Part shown: positions 20,347 through 47,927 of the stretch, piece by piece
How the letters are laid out: each line of letters opens with the position of its first letter
Numbering within the stretch: position 1 is the stretch's first letter
Source: Chloroflexota bacterium
GTDB taxonomy: Bacteria > Chloroflexota > UBA11872 > VXOZ01
NCBI GenBank assembly: GCA_963663275.1
Contig: OY760183.1
Span: 3,136,001-3,200,000, forward strand
Reading direction: 5' to 3'
DNA length: 64,000 nt
The notes under the pieces: model-generated
What the model saw: the letters and a program-made list of their open reading frames with translations, nothing else
Told to the model about the DNA's origin: nothing
The model's database searches: none
Translations under genes and position numbers: made by a program

Positions 20347-20476
20347 GTTAGCTCCTCCCAAGCGTGCAATTCCTGGTACGATCTGCCTTCTCCAAGACAT
20401 AGTGTGAAGTGTACTTACAATTATAGCAGGATATCTAGAGTTTGACCCTTGCTCCCCGCCAAAGTATCTTCGGTTT

Positions 20477-20680
20477 CTAAATGACCAACTTCGCGTCTTT
20501 GGGACGGGGTTTGCCGCCGTGGACTGAGGGTTCGGCGCACCATTTGGCGGATAGGCGGCGGACGGCTGTATAGGTTTGTTCGTCGAAGCCTAAGAGGTCG
20601 CAGATGACGCGGCGGTCGAGGAGGGCGCGGTTGGGGTCGGCGTCGGCAAGGTAGGCCGGCTGCAGATCTTTGTTGTGGAA
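20477..20680 (-). pseudogene. Orphan diverged 3'-end copy (67 codons plus stop) of the type IIG RM gene
   Basis: Colinear with 22082-22285; 59/67 aa identical by hand alignment. Confidence 0.85.
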
Positions 20681-20754
20681 AGTAGCGTCACCCCAACACT
20701 AGCTCCGATGAAATCTTGCTCATTGAACTGAACAGTTGGGACTTGAGTGCTCGA

Positions 20755-21942
20755 CTACTCTGACTTCCCCAGTGCAGCGGCGATCTCAATCCCCTTTTGT
20801 GTTATCTCAAATCTCTTGTCCAGCCCATTAGTATATCTGACAAGCCCTCTATCAATCAGGTCAGTCAGAGCCTGTTCCCACTTTGCCTGAGATTCCACAT
20901 CGCCACTCTCCCCAAAGACTCTGCCATTTGTCTGAATTAGTAAGTCTATTGTTGGCCCAGACTTGACAACAAATCGGATTTCGTCTTTGGTTGCTTCTGC
21001 GAGAAGCTGTTTTGCTTCCTCCGAAAGATGCGTGTCCTCACTCTTTTTCAGCTCCAATGCATCTGTAGATTCTGATTGTACTCGTACCACCGATTCAATT
21101 GCAGCCTCAAAGTCTCCCACGCTTTGCTCGTCTATTCCATCCCAATTCACTGGACAACCAGCAGTCTCCAAGCGTCTAGCCAATTCCTGGAGTTGCTCGG
21201 TGCTGCCATCCAGCCGGACGACATGAAGTCCCTCAATGTCGCTGAATCGCCTTAGCCGGCCAAGTTCCACCAGTACCGTTCGTTCATTGTTCCGCCCCAT
21301 CGCCATGCCAGCTTCAAACAGCACGTTTGGTCTGGCTTGGCCTCTAAACTCAGTCTCATAGTCAGGTTCGTTTTCGTTCCACAACTGAGCGTTTAGCCTA
21401 GCTTCATCGTCAGGCGTAAAAAGCACTATCACTGCATGCGCCTGTGAAAAAGCAGCGTCAAGGACTTCACCCACATAGGGAGTCGGTTTGCCTGTGGCCT
21501 GGACGAGTTCGGACCATTCCAGGGGATGAAGTCCAATAGACCTCAGGAAGGCAAAAAGCGCATCGCGGCCCTGCTCATTCCTGCCATGAACAACAAAGAC
21601 ATCGCGAGTGTCACTAGACGGAACTTGTGCTTCTGACAATTCTTCAGGATCCTCATGGCTGCCTCCGGGTGGTCCCACAATGAAGTCATTTGTAACATCG
21701 TTCTCCGCTGGGATTTCCCCGTCATCAAACAAGTGTGCGGAGTCTTGTCCTCCCGCTACCTTCTCTTGGGTTGCCAATATTTGGACCCTGCTGGCTCCAT
21801 GCACATCGATTTCCCTTGCGTTCAGGGTTATCGGAGTACCCTGTTGGTAGGGCTTCAATATGCGTTCTTCGACAAAGTCTTTTGACACATTCAAGGCGTA
21901 ACCATTAGATTGCCAGTGCTTAACACGTACGTGATAGAACAA
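20755..21942 (-). CDS. TIR-like nucleotide-binding domain protein (CAP12/Pycsar-type TIR) with C-terminal wHTH-like region
   Basis: VFVVHGRN, LFTPDDE, QARPNVLFEAGMAMG; TTG start after GGAGGAGG. Confidence 0.8.
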   Translation of the reverse strand: MFYHVRVKHWQSNGYALNVSKDFVEERILKPYQQGTPITLNAREIDVHGASRVQILATQEKVAGGQDSAHLFDDGEIPAENDVTNDFIVGPPGGSHEDPEELSEAQVPSSDTRDVFVVHGRNEQGRDALFAFLRSIGLHPLEWSELVQATGKPTPYVGEVLDAAFSQAHAVIVLFTPDDEARLNAQLWNENEPDYETEFRGQARPNVLFEAGMAMGRNNERTVLVELGRLRRFSDIEGLHVVRLDGSTEQLQELARRLETAGCPVNWDGIDEQSVGDFEAAIESVVRVQSESTDALELKKSEDTHLSEEAKQLLAEATKDEIRFVVKSGPTIDLLIQTNGRVFGESGDVESQAKWEQALTDLIDRGLVRYTNGLDKRFEITQKGIEIAAALGKSE

Positions 21943-22081
21943 CAAAGACCTCCTCCACAATTCAGTATGCCTTTACATCACTGGTCAGCTCGATCAATGG
22001 GCGTTGCTCACGTCTCAATCACTGTTCTCAGTATAGCCCACTAATTTCAGATTTCGCTACACATCGGAATCTACTTGGCCA

Positions 22082-24984
22082 CTACATGACCAGCTTTGCA
22101 CCTTTCGGACGGGGTTTGCCGCCGTGGACGGATGGTTCGGCACACCATTTGGCGGCTAGGCGGCGGACGGCGGTGTAGATGGCTTCGTCGAAACCCAAGA
22201 GGTCACAGATGACGCGGCGGTCGAGGAGGGCGCGGTTGGGGTCGGCGTCGGCGAGGTAGGCGGGTTGTAGGTCTCTATCGCGGAACTCTTCGAAGATGAG
22301 TTCCGCCATGATGAGTTGGTCGTCGCTAAGTGCGCGGAAGTCGAGGACGGGCAGGGATGGGGCGACAAGCCGTGTCATGCTCGCCTTGCTCGATTGCTGT
22401 CGGCTAGAGAGCCACCAATAGGAAAGGAGACCGAGAGTGCAGTTTCCCCAAACTGCAAAGGCGAAGTCAAACGCCTCCTCGTCGAAGATCACGTTGGGCC
22501 AGACTCTGCCACCGATGGCTTTTTCTTGCGTAAACGCTACGGCAAGTGCCTGTGATCCGAACGTAAAGTCTCTGTTCAAGTGGCCGCGACTAGCAGTCGC
22601 CCAAAGTTCGGCCGCTCTCTTCTCCATTCCTTGCTTCACGCGCAACTGTGAATCGGGCTCGCAAGTCAACCTTGTCTCTTTTGGCGCATCGTGGTTGTAG
22701 AGCGATGGGTAAGTGGCCGTAGGACTTGCCGCTTCCTTGGTGAAAGGCCCATTGTGAGTCTTTAGGGTTAACATTGAGTCGTGAACTCCCAACCGACCTA
22801 TCTCGTTTAGAGAGGCTATCGGCAACTCCCGGCAATTCGGTTCTGCGGGAAGCCACAGCTTGCCCGTCGATAAAGAGTGCGCAACCTGCATAACAGAGGC
22901 ATCTAGTATGCGCGCCGCGCCCCATCCGTTTTCGTGACTCTCAATGGTAGCCTCTACCATCTCACCAGCAATTGCGTCACCACAATAAATGGTATCTCCC
23001 CCGTAGGGTCCATCTTCCAGCTTGCGGATTTCCTTACCGGAATGTATCGCCTTAGCCATGTCCTGAGCTTCCGCAAGGTTGCCTGGCCTATGCCGCAAAG
23101 ATATGAAAGTGCCCCTACCGCTTGGCTTTTCATTTGGCGCCAGGCTGCGGCCGATTACCAGGCACTCCGCCATGCCGGTGTCGGACGAAAACGACATGTC
23201 GTGACCGTTGGCGGCAATGCTGACCACGGTGACATCGGTGCATTGCGTCGCTATCAACTTTCTAAACTTGGTCCAGGACGCGCCATTGATAGCGGTAAAC
23301 GGCAAAACGAGCGCAACAACGCTGTTGGGAGCCATCTTTCTAGCAGCGAGAGACCCGAAGGCGGAACCAAGCCCGGCGTGACCGTGGTAGAAGGTGTTCT
23401 TGGCAAGTTGCTTCAATCGCCCTGCCATTTCAGCCTGGTCATCATCAGAAGAGTCGAAAGCGGCAAAGGCGGCATTGAGAACACCGTCTCTCGCGTTATA
23501 GTGCTTGGTATTGCTGGTAAACGGCGGGTTCATTATCACCAAATCAAAACTCTCATCCGGCATATCCACCGTCACTTGCGCCGCGGTTTCCTCACCCACG
23601 CTGCCGGTGCGCAGGGCGGGGTCGCTGGTATTGAAGAGGGTTTGCACGTCGGAGGGTTGCAGGAGTTCCAGGGAGCCGATTTTCACCGTGCCGTCGTCCT
23701 GGCGGCCGTAGGGCATGGTGTAGAGGCGCGAATTGCGGAAGCCGACGGCGGGTTCCACCCCGGAAAGCGTGGAGCCGGTGATGTGGATGGCCGAGGGCAT
23801 GACGTCGCAGCCGTAGAGCACTTCTTCCATCATGGCCTGGTGCAGGGCGGCGGGATTGCCGCCGGCGCGCTCGTGGCGGGCGGCGACCTGGGCATAGACC
23901 GCCGAGAGCAGCGCGCCGGTGCCGCAGGCGAAATCGCCGACGCGCAGCCGGCCGATGGCCCCGGCGTCCGCCCAATCCACGCCCGGCAACTTGGCCACCG
24001 CCAGCCGCGCCAGCAACGCCGCCGAGGCGGGCAACTATAAAAAGTAGCCAGATACTTGCGGTCGGCAATCAGGCGCTGGAAGATGCGGCCGGTGAGGTCG
24101 TGGGAGTTCTCCACGCCCATGGCGCTGACCTCCTGCGCGGTGTGCCGCAGGCGTCCCAAAATCTGCGCCGCCTCGGCCGCGGGCAAGTGCGCCAGAATGT
24201 CTTTAGCCACGGCAAAGATCGCCCAATAGTTGATCTTCAGTATCTCCCCCCACGCCGCGCCTACCGCGCTCTGCGGATTGGCGACGGCGTCCCCACAGAC
24301 GATCTCCAACGGCTTGATTGCGGCATACATGCCGGCGATGCGCTCGTGAAAAACGAGAGCGTTGGCGATGATGGCACAGGCCATGCGGCGGGTCTGGGGG
24401 ACGTTGCTCATGCCCAATAGACGCGCAATATCCATGGTGACGGCCTGGCGGTTGACGTCCATTTCGTCCAGGATCTGCGCGGCGGCGCTGATGCCTTGTT
24501 CCAGCGTGTCGGTGGCTGCGTCTACGGCGCGCTGGGGCACGGATACTAACCGGATGAGGTCGGCTACGTCCGCGGGCGCGCCGTCCAACCAGCCGGACGC
24601 GGGAAAACGATTGATACCGTCCTTTTCTTCGGTGAACACACAATAAGAAAGCCGCGCCCGGCCTAAGGCGAGCGGCAGGTCGTCGGCGTCGCCTATTTCG
24701 TGCGGGTAGCGCAAGGCGACGGCGGCCTCGATGCGCCGCCCGCCAGCGGCAACCGCCAACCCTAACCGCGATTTGGCCTCTTCCTCAACAGTAGCGGCCG
24801 GTAAATACTCGGCTTCGACGACCACCGGCGCATGGTCCGGCGCGGTGATGAGCAAATCTGGCCGCAACCCGGGCTGCCCAACTATGGCACGAGTATTCTC
24901 CGAGCGCACCCGGCTGCGCGCCATCATGCCCTGCAAGACAGCCTGAAGGGCGTTGTTGACACTGGGTTCGGTCTGGCGCGGCAT
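22082..24984 (-). pseudogene. Type IIG restriction-modification enzyme (REase-N6-MTase-TRD) split by a frameshift near 24035
   Basis: PDLLI..VEAEY nuclease motif; KYLATFY then out-of-frame LPASAALL; DFACGTG motif I; NPPF motif IV. Confidence 0.75.
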
Positions 24985-25094
24985 GGATGTGCCTTTCAGT
25001 GAAGATGGTGTTTGCGGTTTTGGGCGGTGTGGTGGGTTGGCGTTTGGTGTTGCGCGGTTTCGTGAGATGGCGTTTGGTTTTGTGCGCGAAAGAG

Positions 25095-25462
25095 GCGGGG
25101 GACAAGCCCCAATGCTGTCGCATTAAACACAATGAGAGTGAAAACAACGCTCGTTTCTCCGGTAGCGCAGGTTTGTAACCTGCGTCTTCCGTAGGGTCAA
25201 TCCATTTCGTTAGCATTTCTCTTATTCCGGCGGGGGACAAGCCCCCGCGCTACGTTAATGCGACAGTATTGGGGACAAGCCCCCGCGCTACGGCGATTCC
25301 GTGTTCAAGAGGCGGGGGATAAACCCCCGCGCTACGGCTCCTTTGTGCGCGATTGACCCCCTCTCCCTGGGGAGAGGGCCGGGGTGAGGGGACTCTTGGC
25401 GCTGCCAGTTCACCCCCATCCCAACCTTCCCCCCAAAGGGGAAGGGGCAATGCAAAGGTCTA
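25095..25462. repeat. Cluster of REP-like hairpins plus a solo MITE-like end
   Basis: GGGGA(C/T)AA(G/A)CCCCCGCGCTACG at 25230, 25271, 25312 (partial at 25095); GTAGCGCAGGTTTGTAACCTGCG at 25162; 25409-25461 resembles the reverse complement of 50908-50962. Confidence 0.8.
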
Positions 25463-25573
25463 CTTGGAGAAATCCCCTGCACAACTGTACCACGCCGGTG
25501 TAGATGGGTTGCGCGGCGCCGGCGCGGGCTTGCTACAATACGGTCAATACCGTTTTCTCAGTTCTCATCGGCC

Positions 25574-30093: not shown

Positions 30094-30384
30094 GGCCGCC
30101 AGTTTGCGCCTGTTATTCCCCACATACCCCTTGCGCGAAACGCTATATCTGGTACACTGGTGAGGTATGCACCACACTCTGTGGTGTTTGTCTGCCAGTC
30201 CCGTCCTGTTCAGTTTCTCTCGCTTCAACCGCATACCGGCCATGCTGTGCATTGTAGATTCCCGCTGCTTTAGTGCGCCAATGGGAGCGGGGAGCTTGTG
30301 CGACAGGCCTGGCAAATACCCAGTGGGGTCTCTCCCCCAGTAGCAGTGGCGGCATCCGCCACATCCAAGTAAGGAGAATAGAAC

Positions 30385-31467
30385 GTGATTCTCGTTTTCG
30401 CCGGCGCCGGCGCCTCGGCCGCGATCGACCCTGAACAATATCCAACTACAATCGAATTCTTCGAGCGAATCCCGGGTGACATCAAGAGTAACACTTGGTT
30501 TGTACACGCCTCTCAATTCCTGAGCAGCCGGCATGACGGTTTGCCTTTGGACATTGAAAAGATACTTGGCGCCTTGAGTGAGATGCGAGACTATTGCTTG
30601 CAGTCTTACCAAAACAGCAAGTTTTCTGGATGGATGCTGGCGGAGGGTCGCCTCTTGGACCTAGCAAATTCTCGCACAGTTTTTCGGACATTGACCAACT
30701 CTTCTCTAGGAGAATTCGTGCGTGAGATGGAAAATGAGCGTGCTCTGATCGAGGAATTGCAGGGCGACATACATTCTCTTGTATATCAATACTATGAGCC
30801 GGTGCCTCCCCCCGAAGCATTGGCGACTTGGATGACCCTAATCGAAACTCTCTTGCATCACAATCGTAGCCTGGAGATCTTCACGACGAACTATGACCGT
30901 GTGCTAGAAGAGGTTATCCTTGAAAGCAACCACACGTACCTCACTGTGCCTGATGCCGAGGAGTCGGCAACCGGCAAACGGTACGACCGCAGGCATCCGT
31001 GGCTGGACCTCTCGTGCTGGGATCCTCGGCGAGAGTCCCGGGACGCCCTTCGAGTGCGCCTAACCAAACTTCACGGCTCAGTCGAATGGCAACGCCATAC
31101 CAGCGGCAAGATAGTCATCAGCAACCCCGTCTACACAAGAAGCGACCAAAACCACATTCTCTTGTATCCCGGGCACAAAGGAGAGCCCAACAGGGAACCC
31201 TTCATCACCTTTCACAATCACCTCCGGTCGATCGTACTGCAGGCGGAGGCCGCCATCTTCATTGGCTATGCCTTTCGGGACGAGCATATCAATGGAATAC
31301 TCGCCAATCTTCCTCCCGATATCCCAATGTATCTCATCAACAAGGGGGAACGGCCAAGTCTCCCAGCATTCCTGGACGACGCGATCTACTTCGATAGTGG
31401 ATTTACAGACCAGTCCGTCGCAGAGTGCATAGACAGCCTGAGGAGTCTCAATCTCATCTCTGAATGA
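30385..31467 (+). CDS. SIR2-like (SIR2_2) domain protein
   Basis: VFAGAGAS, FTTNYD, KLHGS, FIGYAFRDEHIN. Confidence 0.8.
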   Translation: MILVFAGAGASAAIDPEQYPTTIEFFERIPGDIKSNTWFVHASQFLSSRHDGLPLDIEKILGALSEMRDYCLQSYQNSKFSGWMLAEGRLLDLANSRTVFRTLTNSSLGEFVREMENERALIEELQGDIHSLVYQYYEPVPPPEALATWMTLIETLLHHNRSLEIFTTNYDRVLEEVILESNHTYLTVPDAEESATGKRYDRRHPWLDLSCWDPRRESRDALRVRLTKLHGSVEWQRHTSGKIVISNPVYTRSDQNHILLYPGHKGEPNREPFITFHNHLRSIVLQAEAAIFIGYAFRDEHINGILANLPPDIPMYLINKGERPSLPAFLDDAIYFDSGFTDQSVAECIDSLRSLNLISE

Positions 31468-31548
31468 TCTTGTGTTGAGATAGCGCAGCGCGATGGCGCC
31501 TGCCTGCGCTGCGCCTACCCGCATCTTCAGCTACGCGAGCGGGCGCTG

Positions 31549-31965: not shown

Positions 31966-32113
31966 GCCGGTAAACTCCTCTCCCAAATACGGGCTTTCGT
32001 GGCGCGATGCGTCCTGTACTATACTATCCGCAATGATAGCAATCCCCGCGCGCGCGCCGGTGTGACGTGGAGCGAAGCCGGCTGGCGCTCCGGGTACGGA
32101 CGGATTCAGGGTG

Positions 32114-37222: not shown

Positions 37223-37360
37223 GCACTCGCTGGGTTGTGTTAACTTTCCAAGAATCAGTCCATGATTACTGTGGGAATAGCACGACGGACTCCATCATTT
37301 GTATTTTGAAGAAAGCGTACAAATGAGTGAATCCGAAAGGTAACGCGAGAGCGCGCCGTC

Positions 37361-37457
37361 CGTCATTCCCGCGCAAGCGGGAATCCATCCGTATTCTATC
37401 TCGCTGCACACAACACCAGGAGCGGGGGACAAGCCCCCGCGCTACGCTCGGAATGAG
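37361..37457. repeat. REP-like hairpins of two families
   Basis: CGTCATTCCCGCGCAAGCGGGAATCCA and GCGGGGGACAAGCCCCCGCGCTACG. Confidence 0.75.
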
Positions 37458-37618
37458 ACGCACTATCAACACTACCTAACAACCAAAGAGCCAGACACAA
37501 TCTACGCCGCCCGCGTCATGACAACCGTCGCTATCGAACATCCCTACACCATCGGCCTGATTGCGTCTTGCAGTATACTATCGGCACAGGAGGCTTAGAT
37601 GTCCTTGGTGAGGCCGCT

Positions 37619-39688
37619 ATGACGTTGCGCAAGACGCTGGGTGAATCCGAACACGGCGAAACGCTTGGCTTCAACTTCGACGATGGCGGCGGGCTGCGGG
37701 TGGCGCGGGCGCGGTTCGAGTCCGAGAGCAAGTTCGATTGGTCGTTGTTCGACGGTTACGACCGGGTGCGCATACTCACCTACTCGGCGGGGGTGAGCGC
37801 GCTCGTGCGGCTGCTGGAGCGGCACGGGTTCAGCGACTTCGAGTGCGTCTTTGGCTGCGAGAGCACGCTGCGCACCCTGAAGGACATCCTGGCGTTCCAG
37901 CAGGTTGCCATTGGCGACACGCGGGCGGCCATCAAGGGGCTATCCGACGAACGCCACGCCTTCATTCTCAGCCGCGTGCGGCAGGGGCAGGCGCGGTTTC
38001 GGGTGCTGCGCAAGCAAATCGCCCACGCCAAACTCTACCTGCTGGAGAACACCGAGACCGGTAGCACCCGCGCTATAATCGGCTCCGCGAACCTCTCCGA
38101 AACGGCCTTTGGCGGCCGCCAGTCCGAGACGCTGGTCTGCTTCGACGACGACTTGGCCGCCTGGCGCCACTACCTGGGCATGTACGAAGCCATCCGCGAC
38201 CGCGCCTCCAACGAGATTCCGCTGCCGCCGGAACGCATCGAGAAGGCCGAAATAACGCTGGAAGAAGCGCCCGTCCTGGACCCGGCAGACATTTCCACTC
38301 TGGTCATTGACAATACGGAAGCCGAGCCGGAACCGGGCGCCGGCGTCCAGATCGCCGTGCCCGCGCAGATCGAGCGCATCGAGAAGATGAAAGCCGCCAT
38401 ACCGCCGGTGGTTGGCAACCTCATGCCGCCGGTGCGCAACGGCAGGCAGCGCATCACGCCCGACGTCCGGCGCACGATCGTGCGCGAATCCAGCCGTATC
38501 CGCACGGTGCAATCCGAGGAAGAGGCCGACCACCGCCAGCTTTCCATCGACCGCGACGCCAGGACCGTCACGCTGCTCGGCGAACCGTTTTCGCTGGAAA
38601 CCGACCGTGCCGCCGCCAAGCGGGACGCGGACCTGCTGGTTGACTTCTTCAGCAACTACGAAGGCACGTTCGAAGGCGGCATGGGGGTGGAGCGGCTCCA
38701 GCGCGACTACTTCATCCTCTGGTCGTGGCTCTATTTCGCGCCGTTCATGTGCGACCTGCGCACGCTGGCGGGGCACCAGGGCGACATCTTCCGCTTCCCC
38801 TCGTTCGCCATCGTCTACGGCAAGCCCTCCTGCGGCAAGTCCAGCCTGATCGACACGCTGATGACCTCCATGTTCGGCAAGGCGTACAGCGTCGACAAGC
38901 GCGAGTTCACCAAGGCCCGGCTGCGGGACATCCAGCACGCCTACAAGCGCTTTCCCGCCGTGTTCGACGACATCGGCCGGGCCGCCATCCGCAGCCACGG
39001 CGAGGACGTGATCAAGGACGAAAACCCGCCGCTGGCTGCCGAGTACCCCTGCTTCGTGCTCTCCATGAACCAGGAACTCAAGGCCTTCAGCGACCAGATC
39101 GTCAAGCGCAGCCTGATGATCTACACCACCACCGCGCTGCCGTCATACAAGGAGAGCCTGCGCCACGAACTGCACCTGAAGATACAGGAGGTGCGCCGGG
39201 GCCTCTCCACGCATCTCTACCGCGCGTACCTGGGGCGGACGCTGGAACACCTGAGCGCCAACCCCAAGCCCGAGGACTGGCTGGCGCTCTCGTCCACCAT
39301 CCTGGCCGGGCTGATCGGCGACCTGCGGGACGCGCGCCCGCCGCTCTGGTGCGCCCCCATCACCTGGGACGCATACGCCGACAAACGCCACGAGCGCGTC
39401 AAGGCGCAACTGGAACACCTGCTGCGCCCGGCCACCCGCATGAAACAGGAAGGCGACCGGCCCACCGGCTGGTTCCTGGAAGGCGCTACGGTCATCGTGC
39501 TGGAACAAACCAACACCTTCGGCCGCCGCGAGTTCGATTGGGAAAACGTCCCCTCCACCCTCATCGACGACAACGCCAGCGTGGGCGGGAGAACAGTGCT
39601 GAACCGGCGGGAATTGGAGGAGTTTCTGGGGGCGAAACTCTCCGGTCAGGGGAATAGGCTCTTGGACAAGCTGTTCGGTTGGCGTTAA
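37619..39688 (+). CDS. PLD (HKD)-family nuclease fused to a P-loop ATPase
   Basis: HAKLYLLE..IIGSANLS..QSE; Walker A GKPSCGKS, Walker B VFDD, sensor-like LSMN. Confidence 0.75.
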   Translation: MTLRKTLGESEHGETLGFNFDDGGGLRVARARFESESKFDWSLFDGYDRVRILTYSAGVSALVRLLERHGFSDFECVFGCESTLRTLKDILAFQQVAIGDTRAAIKGLSDERHAFILSRVRQGQARFRVLRKQIAHAKLYLLENTETGSTRAIIGSANLSETAFGGRQSETLVCFDDDLAAWRHYLGMYEAIRDRASNEIPLPPERIEKAEITLEEAPVLDPADISTLVIDNTEAEPEPGAGVQIAVPAQIERIEKMKAAIPPVVGNLMPPVRNGRQRITPDVRRTIVRESSRIRTVQSEEEADHRQLSIDRDARTVTLLGEPFSLETDRAAAKRDADLLVDFFSNYEGTFEGGMGVERLQRDYFILWSWLYFAPFMCDLRTLAGHQGDIFRFPSFAIVYGKPSCGKSSLIDTLMTSMFGKAYSVDKREFTKARLRDIQHAYKRFPAVFDDIGRAAIRSHGEDVIKDENPPLAAEYPCFVLSMNQELKAFSDQIVKRSLMIYTTTALPSYKESLRHELHLKIQEVRRGLSTHLYRAYLGRTLEHLSANPKPEDWLALSSTILAGLIGDLRDARPPLWCAPITWDAYADKRHERVKAQLEHLLRPATRMKQEGDRPTGWFLEGATVIVLEQTNTFGRREFDWENVPSTLIDDNASVGGRTVLNRRELEEFLGAKLSGQGNRLLDKLFGWR

Positions 39689-39771
39689 AGAGAAGAACAA
39701 CTGTGCCGCAGCCAAAATGAACCGGACGTACCGTTCTGTTGGTTCATGCTCCCGCGTGACACGTAGCCCGC

Positions 39772-39791
39772 TTGTACGATGTATCGTACAA
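39772..39791. promoter_or_regulatory. Palindromic TA operator overlapping a -10
   Basis: TTGTACGAT-GT-ATCGTACAA perfect inverted repeat; TACAAT at 39787-39792. Confidence 0.6.
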
Positions 39792-39798
39792 TATGGTC

Positions 39799-40095
39799 AT
39801 GTACACGATCCTGCGAAGCGCGACGTTCAACCGGTGGCTGAGCAGGCTGCGGGACCGGCAGGCGGTAGACCGCATCGTCGCCAGGTTGCTGGCAGCCGAA
39901 GACGGGCATCTGGGAGACGTGCGGTCTGTTGGCGGCGGCGTGTCGGAGATGAGAATCCAGCATGGACCTGGATACCGGGTCTACTTCATCACGCGCGGCG
40001 CTGAGTTGATCGTCCTGCTATGCGGCGGCGACAAGGACAGCCAACGGCGAGACATCGAGCGTGCCAAGAGAATGGCGACAGAATGGAGGAGCTGA
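39799..40095 (+). CDS. RelE/HigB-type addiction module toxin
   Basis: GHLGDVRSVGGGVSEMRIQHGPGYRVYF..LLCGGDKDSQRRDI. Confidence 0.88.
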   Translation: MYTILRSATFNRWLSRLRDRQAVDRIVARLLAAEDGHLGDVRSVGGGVSEMRIQHGPGYRVYFITRGAELIVLLCGGDKDSQRRDIERAKRMATEWRS

Positions 40096-40460
40096 TGTCT
40101 GAGGAGTACCGAAAGTTCGACGCGGCGGACTACATAAAGACTGCGGAAGATGCCCGAGGGCTTCTCAGAGCGGCTGCGGATGAGGATCTTGGGGATGGGG
40201 CCGTGATTCGCGCCGCCCTCAAGTACCTCGCTCGGACGCAGAACATGAGCGCCCTCGCCCGCGAAACCGGGCTTAACCGGGGCAACCTCTACGCGGCGCT
40301 GTCAGCAGACGGCAACCCTACCCTGGCAACACTGCTGAAGGTTGCCAACGCCCTGGGGCTGAGGCTGCGCCTCGAGCCTGTCGAAAGCCCCGCCCAGAAC
40401 GCGCAACCGGCTGAAGCAAGACGGCGCTCAAATCACCGGCCGGATACCGGAGGACGCTAA
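40095..40460 (+). CDS. Addiction module antidote (HTH) antitoxin
   Basis: FDAADYI, MSALARETGLNRGNLYAALSADGNPTLATL; TGATG overlap. Confidence 0.85.
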   Translation: MSEEYRKFDAADYIKTAEDARGLLRAAADEDLGDGAVIRAALKYLARTQNMSALARETGLNRGNLYAALSADGNPTLATLLKVANALGLRLRLEPVESPAQNAQPAEARRRSNHRPDTGGR

Positions 40461-40659
40461 GGTCATCGTCATCGAGCAGACCGACACCTTCGGCCGCCGC
40501 GAGTTCGATTGGGGAAAAGTCCCCTCTACCCTCACCCACGACAACGCCACCGTGGGCGGCAGAACGGTACTAAACCGGCGGGAGTTGGAGGAGTTCTTGG
40601 GCGTGAAACTCAGTGGAGGACGAAATAACCTACTTGACAGGATTCTCGGTAGGAGATGA
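40408..40659 (+). pseudogene. Orphan diverged 3'-end copy of the PLD-ATPase gene
   Basis: Colinear with 39437-39688 (offset 971); RLKQDG..VIVIEQTDTFGRREFDWGKVPSTL..RRELEEFLG..*. Confidence 0.85.
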
Positions 40660-40813
40660 TTGACAGGCAACCTTCAAAACAACATTATGGGCGTTTGGAA
40701 TCACTGTCAAGCTACTCGATAGTAGAGTGCCCAATAAACATGACTTGTGGTTCTGAGCCTATTGGTTTGGCTTATTCCGAGGTTTCGGAATCAGTCACTT
40801 TGCGCTCATGGTG

Positions 40814-42280
40814 TCAGACTGGCAACCGAGGTTCAGCTTCGCGCCGTCCTGCCGCTACGTTCGGGGTCTTGAATCGCTTGCCATCAAGTATGTCCGCTAC
40901 TGTGAGTATCTGCATTCGCGGGTACTGCATCCCGTGAACCTCTAGACTACCCGCCTCTGCCATGTAGCGGTTGAAGTTGCGCACTTGCCCCGCGCTAAGC
41001 GGTTCCATCACGATAAGGCCGGCCATGAGCGCGCTATCTCCATCCATGACCGCGCGCAATTCCCGCAGCACTTTTATTGTGACGTTTCGGCCGCCCTTGA
41101 CCTCGAGCACCATGCTATGAATCTGGTCATCGTGCGGCATGTAGAAGTAAAGCCGTCCATCAATCCCTCTGTCAGCCGTGCGCTTGGCAGTCACGAATCC
41201 GTCCACTTGCTCTACCGCCCACTGCTGGAAGTGGTACGTATCCCGCTGCCACAGATCCCGGGCCGCCTCTAGGGTAAGCGGTACGCCATCCACTTCATAG
41301 TCCTTGCCCTCTACCAGTCCGCAGCGGTCTTTTAGGCGGTTCTGAATCACGCGGTTGACGGCGTGAAACGCTATGTCTATGCCTATCCACTTGCGGCCTA
41401 GGATGTGCGCCGCCTCTAGGGTAGTTGCGCATCCTGCGAACGGGTCGAGCACCACGTCTCCCTCACTCGAGCTTGCCTTGATGATGCGCTCCAGCAGGGC
41501 GCGCGGTTTCTGTGTGGCGTACCCCATGCGTTCTTTCGACTGGGTTTGCCCTAGCGAATGCACGTCGGTCCACCAGTCAGGAATCGGTGTGCCAGGGATT
41601 TCGTCAAGGTACGTTCTGCCGCCAGGGTATTGCTTGTAAGCCCGGCCGTCCTCATCCTTCATCGTGTACTTGGCTTTTGCCGCGTCGGTCAGAGGCTTGT
41701 AAGGACGGTTGAATACACCGCTCTTGCTTGAGCGTCCGTAGTAGAAGATGGTGTCATGCTTGCGGTGGAATCCAAACTTGGGACCGCGTCCACCCGGAGG
41801 GTAGCACCACACAATCTCGTTACGAAAGTTCTGATGTCCGAACACCGCGTCCATAATGGTCTTGAGATAGTGACTTGCCGTTGTGTCGCAATGCAGGTAG
41901 ATACTTCCGGTGGGCTTCAATAAGCGCTGCATGACAAGCAGGCGCTGCGTCATGTATGACAGATAGGCAAGCAAGCGCGGTTGTGTGTGACGCAGCGCGT
42001 TCATCCACAGTCTCCATAGTTCAGCGGCGGAGTCGTCCAATCCAGCCTCACGCATCAAGACCGGCATGGCGCGTACGACACGTTCGCTTTCCGCGTCCAT
42101 TTCCCACATATCGCAGAAAGCGTCCACTTGCTCTGGCAAGGGTTGGCCGGTCTCGTCCTTGTAGATGGAATTGTACGTGCGATTGCTATTGAACGGCGGG
42201 TCAAGGTAGATGAGGTCAACGCTGCCTAACTTCATGTCCTGCATCACGGTCAAGCAATCGCCAAAGTATAGTTTGTTCAC
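40814..42280 (-). CDS. Beta-class N4/N6 DNA methyltransferase with a C-terminal Mrr-like PD-(D/E)XK domain
   Basis: LYFGDCL, YLDPPFNS, TQKP, DPFAGCATT; IDGRLYF..LEVKGG. Confidence 0.82.
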   Translation of the reverse strand: MNKLYFGDCLTVMQDMKLGSVDLIYLDPPFNSNRTYNSIYKDETGQPLPEQVDAFCDMWEMDAESERVVRAMPVLMREAGLDDSAAELWRLWMNALRHTQPRLLAYLSYMTQRLLVMQRLLKPTGSIYLHCDTTASHYLKTIMDAVFGHQNFRNEIVWCYPPGGRGPKFGFHRKHDTIFYYGRSSKSGVFNRPYKPLTDAAKAKYTMKDEDGRAYKQYPGGRTYLDEIPGTPIPDWWTDVHSLGQTQSKERMGYATQKPRALLERIIKASSSEGDVVLDPFAGCATTLEAAHILGRKWIGIDIAFHAVNRVIQNRLKDRCGLVEGKDYEVDGVPLTLEAARDLWQRDTYHFQQWAVEQVDGFVTAKRTADRGIDGRLYFYMPHDDQIHSMVLEVKGGRNVTIKVLRELRAVMDGDSALMAGLIVMEPLSAGQVRNFNRYMAEAGSLEVHGMQYPRMQILTVADILDGKRFKTPNVAAGRREAEPRLPV

Positions 42281-42427
42281 GTGACTGCCGCCTGGATGAA
42301 ATCACCAGTTGCATTCTCGCTGCAGCCGATGTTGTACTTGTAGCATGCTTTCGTAACGCGGGACGGGGCGTGCCTCACGGTGTAGCAGTGATGCGAGCCA
42401 CCCAACACCTGTTCTAGCAGCACACCG

Positions 42428-44410
42428 TTATCCACCATCTCGTGCCAGACTTTCATCGCCATGGTGACTAGCTCCGCAAGCTAAAGAAACAACACCCGAT
42501 TCTACATAAGATCGAATCGTGCTCAGCATAATCACTTCAATGGCATGCGTCTCACCGTCTCTTTGGAGTAGATGGGTTGTTCCCGGATACCTTCGTTGGT
42601 CGAGGTTTGTGATATCTATCGGCTTCAGTTCATACCCAGCAAAACTCTCTTGAACTGTTCCCCAGCAAACGCAAATGTCTATGTGATTGTATTGCTTTGG
42701 CTTATTCTCGTCGTCGATGTCGTCTATCAAACCATCAAGATTGTTCTTGTATTCGAGTGTCAGGTTCCTAGTTTGAAATGTGTCGCTTTCACCGAGCACA
42801 GAGGGTGCCAATCCTAAGATACTCTCACTTGCTTTCAGTTCCCTTTCAGTACTGTCACATCGAAAGAATACTAGTGAGTCATACGTCTGGCTCTGACTCG
42901 TCGCTAGTAAGCGTATCCCGGGAAACACACCCAATGCACACAGTTGGTGAAAAAGCCCAACTACATCTTGTTCAGTCAGAGGTTCGCTTTCATATGTCAC
43001 TGGGGGAATATGAATCGGCTTTCGTTCCTGGTGCTTGCGCACATTGAATTCCCAGTCCTGCTTGTTGAATTCCACCTCTCGTTGTTGCGCGGAAGGAGTC
43101 TCGCCCGTAGGCCTAAGGAATAAGCGCTGGTTGGCCAGATACTGAACAACTCGATTTGCCGCGGCCTTTGCAGTGTCAAGTACCTCGTCCTGTACAGTCT
43201 TGCGGCCTTGGTCTGGGAATGCGTTGTCGAAGTGGACGACTACAAGCACGTTACGACTAAAGGCCTCGTACCGTGTGGCATCAATGGGAAATAAGTCGGC
43301 CAACCTTTGCCGGTTTATGGCGAGCACGAGGCCCGGAGAGAGATACGACCTAGACCTTGACTGAGAGAGAATGCTGTTCATATCACCCCAAATCCCACCT
43401 TGGTATGGAACGAAAGCGTACAGGGTGGGATCGTAAGTATTCAGCTGTTCCTCGAATTCCTCTCTCTCAGCCCTTGTGTACTCAGTTCGAATTCTCTCAG
43501 TGTCCCAATAGACAAATACACCATCTTGCCGTTTGAACTGATCGGGAATGTCCGCGCGTTGCGGATGCTCCGTATAATACGTTCCTAAATCTAGAAAGCG
43601 GTATTCGGGATTGCGGTCAACATTGTGTGGATAGAGAAAGCTAGGTTCGAAGGGGCGGTCCGACTTTTCACCCTGAGAGTCAATCAAGGTAAGTGAGGCT
43701 TCGATATCGTCAAGTGGTTGGCGGTCAATTAGAATCTGGCCGATCGCAGTCCGAGTTTGCAAGATTGCGGCCCAAGCATCAATGTGTGGGGTAAGAGCAC
43801 GCAGGCTCTTGGGTCGTGTTGATTCAGAAAACTGCAATCTTACAAACGTGCCCCTGCTAAGTCCACTTAGCGGCGATTCGTCATCATCCCTGTCAACCAT
43901 TGCTGAATTGGGGCGTTCACCACGTGCCCAAGCATTGCCATATCGCATGCGTAAAGCAACAATCTCTTGGCCCTCTACCTTAGAGTGAATTCTCAGGTCG
44001 TCAGTGCCGTAGGCAAGGAGGGTTAGACCCACGCCCTTATAGCCACGGTATGAATTCTTCTTGCCTCTGCGGTCCATGATCCCTCCTTCACCCTTGAGGG
44101 AAACATGAGGTGCTACCGCACGAGCCAAGTCTCTCTCTGCCATCCCGATGCCGGTATCTAGGACAGAGACGTTGTTTTCACTAAGATTTATGGTTACTTC
44201 CAACCGAAAGGGGCCGGCAAGCTCATCAAGCACGGCATCCTCAATTGCGTCGACAGCATTCTGCACAGCCTCGGCCAAGAAGTCATAGTTGCTGTTATAG
44301 CTCTCGAGAACCCCAGACACGAGGCTTCGCTTATAGATGTCACTCTGAACTACGGTTTCTAGAGGATCGCGAGGGTATGAAATAGCCCTCTCAGATTCTC
44401 GTTCCGTCAT
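42428..44410 (-). CDS. GHKL (HATPase/MORC-like) ATPase with a C-terminal PD-(D/E)XK-like nuclease
   Basis: EAVQNAVDA, DTGIGM, GYKGVG; EQDVVGLF..YDSL..LEYK. Confidence 0.7.
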   Translation of the reverse strand: MTERESERAISYPRDPLETVVQSDIYKRSLVSGVLESYNSNYDFLAEAVQNAVDAIEDAVLDELAGPFRLEVTINLSENNVSVLDTGIGMAERDLARAVAPHVSLKGEGGIMDRRGKKNSYRGYKGVGLTLLAYGTDDLRIHSKVEGQEIVALRMRYGNAWARGERPNSAMVDRDDDESPLSGLSRGTFVRLQFSESTRPKSLRALTPHIDAWAAILQTRTAIGQILIDRQPLDDIEASLTLIDSQGEKSDRPFEPSFLYPHNVDRNPEYRFLDLGTYYTEHPQRADIPDQFKRQDGVFVYWDTERIRTEYTRAEREEFEEQLNTYDPTLYAFVPYQGGIWGDMNSILSQSRSRSYLSPGLVLAINRQRLADLFPIDATRYEAFSRNVLVVVHFDNAFPDQGRKTVQDEVLDTAKAAANRVVQYLANQRLFLRPTGETPSAQQREVEFNKQDWEFNVRKHQERKPIHIPPVTYESEPLTEQDVVGLFHQLCALGVFPGIRLLATSQSQTYDSLVFFRCDSTERELKASESILGLAPSVLGESDTFQTRNLTLEYKNNLDGLIDDIDDENKPKQYNHIDICVCWGTVQESFAGYELKPIDITNLDQRRYPGTTHLLQRDGETHAIEVIMLSTIRSYVESGVVSLACGASHHGDESLARDGG

Positions 44411-44658
44411 GATTTTCCTCGTCGTTCCTTGAGGCCAAACACAGTGGCTATGAGCCTGAAATCAGATCTGCCTATTCCAAGTCCACAAAGAAGTGCTCCA
44501 AGGCACATTGGTACGTTTCGTTACGCAATTGACCGCTTCGCCTCAACAGAACATGTACTACATGCACAATCTGCAACTTTAGAAGTGTATCGACATTCAA
44601 TAGGGCATTCGCTAGCTACGTAAAGAAAAGTCAATCTGGATTTAGACTTCCTGCAACT

Positions 44659-44737
44659 TGGTGAGAAAAAGAGGGCTTGACCTCCAAGCCTCCACGGTTT
44701 TCATTCGTGGCGATTGAACCAGTTGAGCTACTTGCTC
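44659..44737 (-). pseudogene. Highly degenerate tRNA copy (paralog of 46313-46389)
   Basis: Reverse complement GAGCAAGTAGCTCAACTGGTT...CCACG..CGTGG..CTCACCA; anticodon loop enlarged, T-loop broken. Confidence 0.55.
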
Positions 44738-45044
44738 TTCATCCACTGCGGAGTATAGCACGGCACCAATACGTGAGCAATGGCTATCAGCGGGGCGACT
44801 GACCCCCTCGACCCTGTGGGCGGGGTGTTAGCGCAATGAAGCTAACACCTCGTCGCGGCGGCCGCATTGCCGGAGTGGTCGATGCGGTAGCCCGCGGCGG
44901 CTGAAAGCGGTGTGCGCGTGGGCGGCTTTCGAGCCGGACGGACTCATACTTCCGCCGTCCGCCAGACGCCTTGCCGGTAGCGCCACCAGGCTCCGGCGGT
45001 GCGCGCCGCGAAGAAGGCGACCCCGGCAACGTAGACGCCGGGGA
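44659..45044. repeat. About 385-bp diverged duplicate of 46313-46696 (MATE 3' end, spacer, promoter and tRNA)
   Basis: Colinear at offset about 1652; the MATE-coding part 44944-45044 is near-identical to 46596-46696. Confidence 0.85.
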
Positions 45045-45139
45045 CATGGACGAGTATCTCAAGGACGACGACTACGGAAGTCCCTTACGCTTAAAGAGAA
45101 GCTGCCCTGGGCAGATAGTGGAGGGGCAGATCACCTGGG

Positions 45140-45898
45140 CTAACCTTGTAGGGTACCGCTCGCGCGGGTTGGGTACCGAGCGTTCGGGCTTTCAAGGATT
45201 GCGCGCTGGGATTCGGTCAGGTCTGCATAGTCATCGGGATCCAGGTAGCTGGCCGACCATGAGAGCGGGTGCGGGCTGTACTTGAAGAAGATAGTGCGGC
45301 GCTCGTCGGCGCCGTTCCAGGGAAGGGTGCCGTGGGTAAGGGCCTCGGTGAAGATGATGGCGGTGCCGGCGGGTCCGGTTACCCGCTCCACGAAAGGGCC
45401 CGGTTCGTCCATCTCTTTCCACTCTTCGGGGAACTTGAAGTTGCTCTTATGCGAGCCTGGCACGCAGCCAAAGCCGCCGTCCATGGGGCCGACATCCTTC
45501 AGATTGTAGGCAACCACGGAAAGGCCGTTATGCATCATCCCGTCATGGAAGCGGTAGTAGAACATGGGCCGGAAGGGGGCGCCGCCGCCGTGGAGGCTTG
45601 TCCCGATCGGGCCCTTGCCTGACCTGATGACATCGAGATAAACGTGGTCGAGCCTGAACTGATCGCCAAGCAGTTCGGTCAGGTAGGGTGTGATGGCCGG
45701 ATTGTCGATTAGGTCGCGGTAGTCCTTGGACCAGTGAAGCAGATGCTCAAACCTATGGGTGCGCATGTCCGTTGGGCATTCAGCGGCCATGTGCTCGTCG
45801 AGCACGCTGTTGAGCTGGGCGATCTTCTCAGGTGATAGTGCTCCCGGCACGGCAAGGTAGCCTTGAAGGTCGAACATGTAGCGCTCGTGGTCGTTCAT
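45140..45898 (-). CDS. Phytanoyl-CoA dioxygenase (PhyH)-family Fe/2OG-like protein
   Basis: YMFDLQGYLAV, LHGG, GGFGCVPGSHK, FTEALTHGTLPW, RRTIFFKY. Confidence 0.82.
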   Translation of the reverse strand: MNDHERYMFDLQGYLAVPGALSPEKIAQLNSVLDEHMAAECPTDMRTHRFEHLLHWSKDYRDLIDNPAITPYLTELLGDQFRLDHVYLDVIRSGKGPIGTSLHGGGAPFRPMFYYRFHDGMMHNGLSVVAYNLKDVGPMDGGFGCVPGSHKSNFKFPEEWKEMDEPGPFVERVTGPAGTAIIFTEALTHGTLPWNGADERRTIFFKYSPHPLSWSASYLDPDDYADLTESQRAILESPNARYPTRASGTLQG

Positions 45899-46312
45899 GA
45901 GTTGTCTCCTTGTTACATGTTTTCTGGAATCAATGGCAACAGCCTTTATGCCACACTCTTTCCAGGCTCTGACTTTAGCCTACATCGACCGCCTCGATGG
46001 TCTACCACGATGCGCCAACTTAGAACTTGCCTTGCCACTCTGGAGCGCCAATCGCGGGAACCTGAATTCAATCTCTGTAACTGGAGTTTTGCCAAGGCAG
46101 CAGACATGCGCTTGCGTGGCGTCCATGATTTGCTTGCGAACGGGCGACCCTCTTCCTTCCCTAACACGGTTCCGTTCTTACCCTCCGTATTGTCAAATCC
46201 CTAAGAAACAATCTCAAAATGGTCAGCCGCCACAGTCGGCGGAACCACAAGGCGGGTCTGGCCAAATGCTACCGTGGAATAGTTCGAGTCCCCTCAGTGC
46301 TTAGCTATGAAC

Positions 46313-46389
46313 TGGTGGGCAAGGGAGGACTCGAACCTCAGATCTCCACGATGTCAACATGGCGCTCTAACCGGCTGCGCTACTTTCCC
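46313..46389 (-). tRNA. tRNA-Val(GAC), probably a pseudogene
   Basis: 77 nt ending CCA; anticodon arm CCATG-TTGACAT-CGTGG; GGTTCGAGT T-loop; one mismatch each in acceptor, D and T stems. Confidence 0.7.
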
Positions 46390-46403
46390 TACCTACAAAG
46401 CGG

Positions 46404-46432
46404 AGTATAGCACGGCGCCTACATGGGAACAA
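46404..46432 (-). promoter_or_regulatory. Sigma70-type promoter of the tRNA
   Basis: TTGTTC-17-TATACT with TG extension; twin TTGCTC-17-TATACT at 44752-44780. Confidence 0.6.
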
Positions 46433-46595
46433 TCGCCGTCGGTGGAGCAAGCGACCTTCTTGACGCTGTGGGCGGGGACTTAACGCAATGAAACTAACGC
46501 GCCGTTGCGGCGGCCGCATTGCCGCAATGGTCGATGCAGCAGCCCTCGGCGGCCGAAAACGGTGTGCGCATGGGCGGCTTGCGAGCCGGACGACC

Positions 46596-47927
46596 TCATA
46601 CTTCTGCCGTGCGCCAGGCTCCTTGCCGGTAGCGCCACCAGGCACCGGCGGTGCGCGCCGCGAAGAAGGCGACCCCGGCAACGTAGACGCCGGGGAGTCC
46701 CCAGCCGACCACGCCGGTGAGCAGCCACGCCAGCGGTACCATGACCAGGTAGCTGGCAGCCGTGGACGTGTAGAGCACCCATTTGGAGTCACCGGCGGCG
46801 CGCAGCACCGCGGCCAGCGTCATGCTCGCGGCCATGAAGGGCACCTGCAGCAACAGGAGGGGGAGAACGCGCGTTACCTCCGCTACCACAGCGACGTCGG
46901 GGGTCAGCAGGTGCAGTATTGCGGACGGCGCGACCAGCACCGGCGCCAGGACGAACGCCGGCAGGGCGGCCATCAGCAGCAGCCCGGCCCGCTGGGTGAG
47001 CGCCACCGTGCGCTCATCGTCGTTGCCAAGGCTCTGCCCGATCAGGATAGACACGCCGGTCGAAAGCGCCCAAATCATCGCCCAGAGGATCTGGTGTACA
47101 TTGGTGACGACCTGCATCCCGGCGATGACGGTGGCGCCGAGCGCGGCGACAATCCAGAGCACGAGCACGTTGTTGGCGTAGCCCAGGAAGAGCATGGCCG
47201 TCTCGGGCCAACCGATCGACCAGAGCCGCGGCAGCGCCTCCCGGGCCTGGCGCAGTCGCCCGAAGCGGAAGAGAGCGTACGTGCCGCGGAACCTTCTCCA
47301 GCCAAATTGCGCCATGTAGACGCAGCCCACGGCTACCGCGATCAGCGTCCCGACGCCCGCGCCGCGAAGCCCCCAGCCTGCCACGAAGATCAGGACATAG
47401 TTCAGCGGGACGTTGATCACGTTGACGAGGAGCGTCACGCGCATCGCCACGCCGGTCTCCCCCACGCCCGCGTAGACGGCGCGGAACATAGCCGTGGCGG
47501 CCGCGAACGGCGCGGCGAGCGCGAGTATGCGGAGATACGGCACGCCCTCGGACTGCACAACCTCGCTCAATCCGAACGCGGCGAGGAGCGGCCCTGCGGC
47601 GACGTTCAAGACCAGGAGCACCACGAGGCCGGCGCCAACGCCGATGAGCAACGAGACGTCCAGCAACCGCCCAACCGCCGCCGGCCGTCCCTCGCCGAAC
47701 CTGCGGGCCGAGATCACCTGCGCCGCGGTCGCCCATCCGCCAAACAGCATGCCCGCCGCGATGTTGATGGACGAGGCGACGGCCGCCGCCGCCAGCGCCT
47801 GAGTGGACACACGGCTGATCATCGCGGTGTCCACGACCGCAAGCACGATCTGCGAGAGATTCGCGACGACGATCGGGTAGCTCAAGGCGAGCACCCGCTT
47901 CAGCACGACCGTCTGGGCTGTTGCCAC
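46596..47927 (-). CDS. MATE family efflux transporter (start uncertain, 47927 or up to 48011)
   Basis: LALSYPIVVANL..VDTAMI, NVPLNYVLIF..GLRGAGVGT, LRAAGD; many TM segments. Confidence 0.85.
   Translation of the reverse strand: MATAQTVVLKRVLALSYPIVVANLSQIVLAVVDTAMISRVSTQALAAAAVASSINIAAGMLFGGWATAAQVISARRFGEGRPAAVGRLLDVSLLIGVGAGLVVLLVLNVAAGPLLAAFGLSEVVQSEGVPYLRILALAAPFAAATAMFRAVYAGVGETGVAMRVTLLVNVINVPLNYVLIFVAGWGLRGAGVGTLIAVAVGCVYMAQFGWRRFRGTYALFRFGRLRQAREALPRLWSIGWPETAMLFLGYANNVLVLWIVAALGATVIAGMQVVTNVHQILWAMIWALSTGVSILIGQSLGNDDERTVALTQRAGLLLMAALPAFVLAPVLVAPSAILHLLTPDVAVVAEVTRVLPLLLLQVPFMAASMTLAAVLRAAGDSKWVLYTSTAASYLVMVPLAWLLTGVVGWGLPGVYVAGVAFFAARTAGAWWRYRQGAWRTAEV

Follow-up and report, generated by a model that had tools for sequence, protein, structure and literature searches.

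Diverged gene tails behind cargo genes in a Chloroflexota defence island: candidate scars of additive recombination

The window studied here, a 64,000-nt stretch of DNA from a Chloroflexota bacterium (genome G000), comprises bases 3,136,001-3,200,000 of a single 3.53-Mb contig, OY760183.1; positions below are those of the window unless stated otherwise. In it a restriction-modification (RM)-like methyltransferase gene, a PLD-nuclease/ATPase gene (PLD) and a MATE efflux gene (the anchors) are each followed by other genes (the cargo) and then by a diverged copy of the sequence at the anchor's own 3' end (the echo). The explanation that we favour, with moderate confidence, is that each echo is the scar of an additive recombination event joining two diverged versions of one locus. 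The low-GC stretch at ~18,000-46,000 (GC 0.49-0.62 inside, ~0.65-0.70 outside) is a defence island. How defence islands gain and reshuffle genes without mobile-element machinery is still poorly understood, and the scars would be a readable record of single defence genes (TIR, ApeA, toxin-antitoxin (TA)) being added behind conserved anchors by host recombination alone.

Results and discussion

A direct-repeat search of the window, followed by pairwise blastn, located three direct repeats. Each is present in exactly two copies in the genome, is 84-88% identical over 178-328 aligned nt and brackets cargo; most of the other local repeats passing the filter were dispersed elements with 76-174 copies. 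The three anchor-cargo-echo units that an earlier reading of the DNA from its letters (the sequence-only reading) had described at the RM, PLD and MATE genes are therefore real, and the cargo is as listed there: a TIR gene, a small open reading frame (ORF) with an HI1420-type antidote gene, and phyH.

The first anchor, the RM gene, lies at 22082..24984 on the minus strand as two ORFs (22082-24034 and 23830-24984). It is split by the loss of 1 nt near 24034 relative to three orthologous loci (L113, L121, L122), and in the other full-length relatives both parts lie in one frame; the split (23990-24040) is either a real frameshift or an assembly error. The gene had been described as an intact type IIG RM gene. 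As assembled it is not intact, and the type IIG assignment is a weak one, with matches to Eco57I (E 2e-4) and PglX (E 6e-4). Behind it are the TIR-domain gene (20755..21960, minus strand; Pfam CAP12-PCTIR_TIR, 1.5e-26) and then the RM echo (20477..20680, minus strand), a start-less copy of the final 64 codons and the stop codon of RM (22082-22285 against 20477-20680; 87.6% over 193 nt by blastn, E 9e-63). The similarity begins within the gene and ends at the stop codon, and the echo keeps the frame and the stop. Separately, the C-terminal ~100 residues of the TIR protein (20755-21060) are unrelated to those of the three orthologues that follow RM in other genomes (L113, L114, L121), which looks like a C-terminal domain swap.

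The PLD gene (37568..39688, plus strand; Pfam RE_NgoFVII PLD, 6e-7), the second anchor, is followed by a TA-like pair consisting of the small ORF and the HI1420-type antidote gene (39717..40460, plus strand; dnstrm_HI1420, 1.4e-24) and by the PLD echo (40408..40659, plus strand), which holds the final 83 codons and the stop. The two copies are 84.3% identical over 178 nt by blastn (39463-39640 against 40434-40611, E 1e-47) and align in frame over ~250 nt, reaching both stop codons. In-frame alignment thus bore out the claim that the RM and PLD echoes both keep an open frame and a stop codon.

The MATE gene (46596..48011, minus strand; Pfam MatE, 1.2e-48) is the third anchor. Its repeat, 83.8% identical over 328 nt when aligned without gaps (46369-46696 against 44717-45044, E 2e-89), extends with gaps to 46313-46696 against 44659-45044, that is, over 100 coding nt, ~205 nt of intergenic sequence and the entire tRNA-Val. 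Copy 1 (46313..46696, minus strand) contains the tRNA-Val, the spacer and the last 100 nt of MATE, and the echo unit (44659..45044, minus strand) contains the last 100 nt of MATE, the spacer and a decayed tRNA-Val. The repeat reported as a MATE echo is therefore present, though it is mostly non-coding. Identity falls from 100% in the first 52 nt to ~94%, then ~85%, and finally ~65% in the tRNA. The live tRNA gene lies at 46313-46389; the decayed copy at 44659-44735 is ~65% identical to it, has an anticodon loop region 2 nt longer and is called by neither ARAGORN nor Rfam.

The phyH cargo (45140-45898) of this third unit belongs to a block of phyH and tRNA-Val(GAC) (45036..46415, minus strand) that is 88-92% identical in at least 14 same-genus genomes. 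The MATE gene (82-84% in relatives) sits elsewhere in same-genus genomes, beside katG in one of them (G011). Since phyH and the tRNA are conserved together across the genus and MATE is elsewhere, this is not a case of the MATE gene capturing phyH, as had been proposed. A contig from an unrelated metagenome run, X2, has tRNA-Val joined to an intergenic/MATE allele nearer the echo (~90%), so that an echo-like spacer/MATE allele is found in an ordinary setting. Direct repeats of 105-146 nt, 74% identical, themselves flank the MATE gene in G011 and G006 (L014 10737-12529 and L017 6856-8674).

The self-comparison of the genome that the sequence-only reading had suggested was carried out in 16-kb tiles, retaining repeats that were 80-450 nt long, had an identity of at least 75% and were separated by 150-8000 nt, with one copy ending a long open frame. 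Twenty distinct pairs were checked; 14 were dispersed elements with 12-174 copies and six were two-copy. Two of the latter were dropped as lying in tandem or repeated genes (one of the two inspected). This leaves four gene-tail/downstream-echo pairs in 3.53 Mb, three of which lie in the window, within one 26.3-kb stretch (P ~2e-6). As the screen rests on crude ORF calls, the count is a lower bound.

The fourth pair (genome positions 459,840/461,957; region 458774-462099, L030) consists of a gene with Pfam SelA/aminotransferase-type matches, a multicopper oxidase gene and a 144-nt echo, 90% identical. It is outside any defence context and not at a tRNA. The multicopper oxidase is present in none of the 16 genus genomes, and similarity to relatives stops at the stop codon of the preceding SelA/aminotransferase-type gene. 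The nature of this cargo means that the pattern is not defence-specific. In another genome (G002) a 99-nt copy of the tail of the SelA/aminotransferase-type gene was observed ~4.8 kb downstream of its own gene.

Origin of the echoes

Comparison of the active and echo ends supports an origin of the echoes from once-functional, separately evolved alleles. For RM the active end and the echo differ by 17.5 synonymous (Sd) and 7.5 non-synonymous (Nd) changes, giving dS 0.50 and dN/dS 0.107. Neutral drift of a local copy (pair omega ~0.55) would give seven or fewer non-synonymous changes out of 25 with P 5e-4. Against orthologues the RM echo has omega 0.07-0.21, in the same range as the RM gene itself (0.10-0.24), and its peptide is close to the family consensus. 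It is also 88-93% identical to the RM ends of other species, compared with 87.6% to its own gene. For PLD the corresponding dN/dS is 0.31; some decay has taken place, since several non-conservative changes are private to the echo. A 76-row tree built from the 3' ends of PLD places the active end as sister to the G011 allele (100/98), G011 being the genome closest to the window in likeness and gene order, and puts the echo inside a clade of four TA-linked alleles (97/93). The dN/dS values and the different allele clade of the PLD echo thus agree with the proposal of the sequence-only reading that the echoes come from separately evolved alleles.

Islands at the same place in two relatives share the anchors. 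That of G006 reads ATPase-TIR-RM-helicase-PLD-TA-5.5 kb-phyH and that of G011 reads ATPase-4 kb-RM-HsdR-HsdM-PLD-7 kb-phyH, with neither TIR nor TA cargo; alignment to the window and self-comparison found no RM or PLD echoes in either island. The anchors are 64-84% identical to those of relatives at the protein level and 80-90% in the DNA of their 3' ends, with similarity up to the stop codon.

The TIR gene directly follows RM in three of the 24 RM loci examined (L113, L114, L121), with the ATPase next and no echo. An RM echo was found in G001 (L135 7794-9918), where an internally deleted RM (162-aa ORF) is followed by an ApeA/HEPN gene, by the C-terminal 90 codons of a second RM and then by SIR2 on the other strand; the two RM ends of this genome group weakly together (92/65). 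RM echoes thus occur at two of 25 RM loci.

The PLD gene has 77 related loci (37-84% identity). The TA pair is also behind PLD in three of them (L043, L081, L095), and the antitoxin is behind PLD in a fourth (L041). A PLD tail fragment lies downstream of PLD in G000 and in two others among the 77 genome and 10 metagenome loci, a total of 3/88. In L041 the order is PLD-antitoxin-echo; compared with G000, the junction reaches ~50 nt deeper into the TA side and ~60 nt deeper into PLD, and the echo is 94% identical to its own gene. In L039 (G013) a 70-nt PLD fragment is followed by a 61-nt remnant of the antitoxin end, adjoining phyH. In addition, L060 has an internal PLD fragment and in L098 PLD is interrupted by ~2.2 kb. 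No PLD fragment was found upstream of any PLD gene among the loci examined, none of the 10 metagenome PLD loci has an echo, and the 26-nt TA/PLD-echo junction sequence was not found in the metagenome contigs.

Across these loci, therefore, the same anchors carry different cargo or none, as the sequence-only reading had suggested looking for, and independent echoes exist elsewhere in G001 (RM-ApeA-echo), L041 and G013 (PLD). The echoes are recurrent but rare. The further idea that they build an anti-phage array did not hold up: at 3/88 PLD loci and 2/25 RM loci they are scars and not a regular system, and the fourth pair brackets a multicopper oxidase.

The MATE echo meets the phyH block at 45036-45044, where the two have 9 nt of microhomology (CGCCGGGGA) in common; at this point 42-345 nt beside phyH that relatives share are missing, and they are present nowhere else in G000. 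At the TA/PLD-echo junction (~40410-40416), which cuts the 3' end of the antitoxin gene, the overlap is ~4-8 nt and imperfect.

Profile and repeat searches confirmed that the window has neither an integrase nor an attC-like array. No tyrosine recombinase (PF00589) was found in the window; the two that the genome has lie at 2.62 and 2.86 Mb, away from the 3.136-3.200 Mb that the window covers. The genome has no serine recombinase (PF00239), and a search of 18000-49000 for attC-like inverted repeats gave only two 41-nt, 71% inverted pairs 12-14 kb apart. With no nearby recombinase and no attC-like repeats, a site-specific route is unsupported. An integron cassette array was rejected because no IntI-type recombinase adjoins the units and there are no attC-like repeats at cassette ends. 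Homologues of ComEC and DprA are present and Ku is absent; ComEC and DprA were also found in 10 and 11, respectively, of 14 control genomes.

The repeats, their origin from alleles, the varying cargo of relatives, the absence of a recombinase gene from the window and one junction with microhomology are what the analysis shows; in the scheme below we infer how the events were ordered, what the donor was, how the DNA entered and which of two possible routes acted. Donor DNA from another strain would carry the tail of a conserved anchor gene together with a neighbouring gene. Its entry would combine one homologous exchange, within the anchor's 3' region or at its end, with one illegitimate junction formed where a few bases are shared. 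The product would be an insertion-duplication: an anchor with a complete 3' end, a new gene behind it and a start-less copy of the tail further downstream. Entry could be by a single crossover (Campbell-type) of a circularised fragment, or by homology-facilitated illegitimate recombination (HFIR), in which a linear fragment would have its non-homologous end joined within the anchor. Both routes join one homologous exchange to one illegitimate joint and so can yield the same map. The sequence-only reading had incoming DNA recombine with the anchor and rejoin illegitimately near the resident 3' end; its pairing of one homologous with one illegitimate joint stands, and its route is one of two equivalent ones (PMC3240628). 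Duplication rather than deletion would fit entry of a circle by a single crossover at least as well as textbook HFIR.

For the PLD unit the circle route would require a donor with a TA-type PLD and TA, and a resident with a G011-type PLD; both arrangements are observed. A crossover at the stop codon would predict the order seen, namely G011-type tail, TA-type spacer, TA, TA-type echo and resident downstream DNA. Downstream of its stop codon, the active PLD is followed by DNA with homology to the spacer and toxin of TA-linked alleles. A G011-type PLD linked to TA, which would be needed as the HFIR donor, was not seen in the four TA-bearing loci. In a reciprocal-chimera test PLD copy 1 was G011-like up to the stop and TA-allele-like thereafter, and the echo was TA-allele-like; the approximately unbiased (AU) tests were not significant and the RM tree was a polytomy. 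The PLD allele types may thus favour the circle route with a crossover at the stop codon, the preference being weak because the AU tests, made on a 21-row subset of the tree, are not significant. For the MATE unit, a circle with tRNA-Val, spacer, MATE tail and phyH might have entered a resident whose island abutted tRNA-Val-spacer-MATE, and the 52 identical bases could mark the point of exchange.

A number of observations weigh against additive recombination between diverged alleles as the source of the echoes. Three separate rare events within 26 kb are required. All the relatives compared are other species, with no same-species genome, donor or empty site among them. Microhomology is clear at only one of the three junctions, that at ~20680 having no reference sequence. 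The gradient of identity in the MATE unit is not accounted for in detail. The tree of RM 3' ends is an unresolved polytomy. In the 21-row subset of PLD ends the clade of echo and TA alleles is not in the best tree, and the AU test rejected neither a clade of active end and echo (p 0.082) nor one of echo and TA alleles (p 0.32), so that the PLD allele typing is suggestive only. An AGA codon and a G ~10 nt apart are common to the active PLD end and its echo alone, which could reflect closer kinship; these private states are possibly a short gene-conversion tract, which would mean that both copies reside in one genome. Contigs from metagenome run X10, the one run that contains most of the stretch, give near-zero cover at 39000-40868, the PLD junction, and also at 42471-44339.

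The AU result for active end plus echo and the two private PLD states would suit a local origin, in which a tandem duplication in this lineage was followed by deletions and the unused copy diverged in place. So would the identity of the first 52 nt of the MATE pair, the weak pairing of the two RM ends in G001 and the 94% likeness of the L041 echo to its own gene. The low dN/dS of the RM pair is, however, unlikely under drift of one copy, and the RM echo is nearer to the genes of other species than to its own. The divergence of 12-16% is at the between-species level in the genus, yet the junctions of G000 were found in no genus locus compared or self-compared, and in L041 and G013 the PLD echo is joined at different points. 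Nor would duplication supply the cargo between the copies, which is low-GC foreign DNA (0.50-0.53). We therefore regard a local origin as improbable.

The low cover from run X10 also bears on whether the units are an assembly artefact, produced when a metagenome-derived assembly strung together the strain variants of a single locus. The contigs of this run break at the 52-nt exact repeat, the contamination estimate (CheckM-type) is 5.26% and the relatives are metagenome-assembled genomes (MAGs). The genome is, however, one 3.53-Mb contig, and X10 contigs match both MATE copies exactly and at comparable depth (47-96), this contig support being for the MATE copies only. Given a direct repeat, no linear path other than the assembled order is open. 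Moreover, the joints lie at microhomology and not in common sequence, where assemblers switch strains; the decayed tRNA of the echo is not what is expected of a living strain variant; and similar structures occur in independent assemblies (L041, L135, L039). An artefact thus seems very improbable indeed.

The position of the MATE unit brings in the tRNA. The island abuts tRNA-Val, a second, decayed tRNA-Val lies inside it, relatives have several tRNA-Val copies near the locus, and the block 40408-45044 is bounded by two truncated tails. This might be expected if two or three related islands had stood in tandem at tRNA-Val, with an integrase acting in trans or since lost, and large deletions had then left the tails. 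As a rule, integrative elements at tRNAs duplicate just the 3' part of the tRNA. The repeat here covers the whole tRNA, 205 nt upstream of it and 100 nt of MATE, and there is no integrase, so a tRNA-targeting integrative island was rejected. Collapse of tandem islands meets the same difficulty with the extent of the repeat, and no integrase was found beyond the two distant tyrosine recombinases. It would also need three islands and several deletions of ~20 kb, and the fourth pair and the echoes of L041 and G001 are not at a tRNA. We consider it decidedly unlikely. A gene tail is likewise duplicated by e14 and phage 21 in icd of E. coli, where the prophage replaces the 3' end of the gene; the gene remains whole, and a diverged pseudo-3'-end is left beyond the insert. 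Those insertions are integrase-driven and use a fixed core site, whereas the units here lack an integrase, have varying junctions and carry inserts of only 1-1.4 kb.

Relation to described systems

HFIR, a process of naturally transformable bacteria, is described as pairing one homologous anchor with one illegitimate junction that often has 3-10 bp of microhomology, and as needing no site-specific recombinase; the insertion is coupled with a deletion of similar size (PMC3240628). The units studied here agree in their conserved anchors, in the 9-nt microhomology seen at one junction and in lacking a recombinase gene. Unlike there, the tail of the anchor is duplicated and not deleted, although up to 345 nt beside phyH is missing. 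The same source reports that 56 of 60 E. coli clones had 109-950 bp of the homologous segment duplicated, which is ascribed to a single crossover of a circular molecule missing part of the homology (PMC3240628). Such Campbell-type insertion-duplications resemble our units in having a gene, an insert and a partial second copy, with direct repeats flanking the insert; the echoes here are 193-386 nt. They differ in coming from a plasmid experiment (PMC3240628), whereas here the alleles are natural, 12-16% diverged, and no circle was observed.

In Vibrio cholerae, type VI secretion system (T6SS) effector-immunity modules are reported to recombine in their conserved upstream part, displacing old 3' pieces downstream as orphans; the arrays grow without an integrase, an HFIR-like event is invoked, and the C-terminal displacement of Rhs proteins is cited (PMC5361080). 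This array model and the Rhs loci appear to be the closest described case. There, however, the 3' ends consist of variable toxic tips, and it is immunity genes that are retained. In our units the conserved part is the 3' tail (84-93% between species), and what has been added are unrelated genes that stand alone and belong to defence or metabolism. The likeness to HFIR and to polymorphic-toxin displacement drawn by the sequence-only reading consequently extends to the shared logic of an HFIR-like event and stops at the duplicated, conserved 3' tails, with neither toxic tips nor immunity genes.

Variable defence genes between conserved flanks are exchanged through flanking core genes in core defence hotspots (PMC10250203). 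The anchors here differ in lying inside the island and carrying scars. The exchange by double homologous recombination in the hotspot study reportedly leaves no second copies of gene tails behind. Duplicated gene tails in defence islands are undescribed in the titles and opening abstract lines of the literature on illegitimate recombination and defence islands and on defence hotspots. The mechanism is known in kind, and its use in a defence island would be a new variant. A leftover tail is a footprint identifying the allele involved; it can be searched for in any genome, so that events can be counted and anchors and cargo found.

If the repeats allow cargo to loop out and re-enter, the pattern would amount to an integrase-free cassette system. 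The conserved 3' ends of the PLD-ATPase and the RM-like methylase might then be landing pads that work without an integrase: with a tail on either side, a defence gene would loop out, travel as a circular or linear molecule and re-enter genomes bearing the anchor. This is a speculative suggestion, which we think unlikely. Were it true, defence genes would circulate among sponge-associated Chloroflexota like integron cassettes, on host recombination alone. The stronger form, a selected and reusable system in which RecA loops the cargo out as a circle through the direct repeats and the echoes are working parts, would explain why the same anchors have echoes in several genomes with different cargo (TIR, ApeA, TA). 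The cargo is enriched in defence genes and the PLD allele pattern fits entry of a circle. Against it, echoes are rare (3/88 PLD and 2/25 RM loci), junction positions differ, echoes vary in length from 70 to 386 nt, private non-conservative changes are present in the PLD echo, the tRNA of the MATE echo is decayed, and no circle junction was seen in contigs of the metagenome runs. A selected system of this kind is improbable.

Other features of the window

Profile searches assigned to the island an AbiLi/PDC-M38A-type ATPase, the TIR protein, the RM-like methylase, a type I HsdR with HsdM/S, a SIR2 protein, a 1,703-aa DpdF/GajB-like double helicase, the PLD-nuclease/ATPase, the TA-like pair and a DNA methylase with a GHKL ATPase. 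The ATPase gene (17625..18734, minus strand; Pfam AAA_21, 1.4e-19; PADLOC PDC-M38A, 1e-78) is the conserved left flank of the variable island, similarity to relatives stopping at 18733-18737. The right edge is formed by phyH and tRNA-Val(GAC), followed by the MATE gene, katG and an IS30-family element.

Behind the RM echo are ORFs X (307 aa) and Y (131 aa) (18801..20400, minus strand; GC 0.50); X, but not Y, matches PADLOC PDC-M14A (1e-8). A search for the donor arrangement by way of protein X (18801-19724) gave a match, a distant one (G052), in one of 97 other genomes of the class. Between the PLD and MATE echoes lie N6/N4 DNA methyltransferase and GHKL-ATPase genes (40814..44410, minus strand; GC 0.53), which are without a counterpart in the 77 PLD loci except for a methylase of 36-45% identity in L068.

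The PLD protein is unusually conserved and widespread, with 65-84% identity across many Chloroflexota MAGs and some Latescibacterota MAGs. Beyond a weak ZacB match the gene has no PADLOC or NCBIfam family, and it may be an undescribed single-gene defence system.

The IS30-family element (50899-52086), which adjoins katG, occurs in at least eight copies at 97-99% identity; its HTH_38 and rve domains were read in a 98% identical copy at 660,197-661,207. As katG and MATE sit at another locus in G011, a rearrangement linked to this insertion sequence may have brought both here. Two 1.8-kb stretches 6 kb apart (53099-54931 and 60902-62758) are 66% identical and are probably paralogous genes. Dispersed repeat families of ~100-200 nt (e.g. 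16424-16640) have ~76-174 copies in this genome and are present in relatives too; one of these families has palindromic ends, like a miniature inverted-repeat transposable element.

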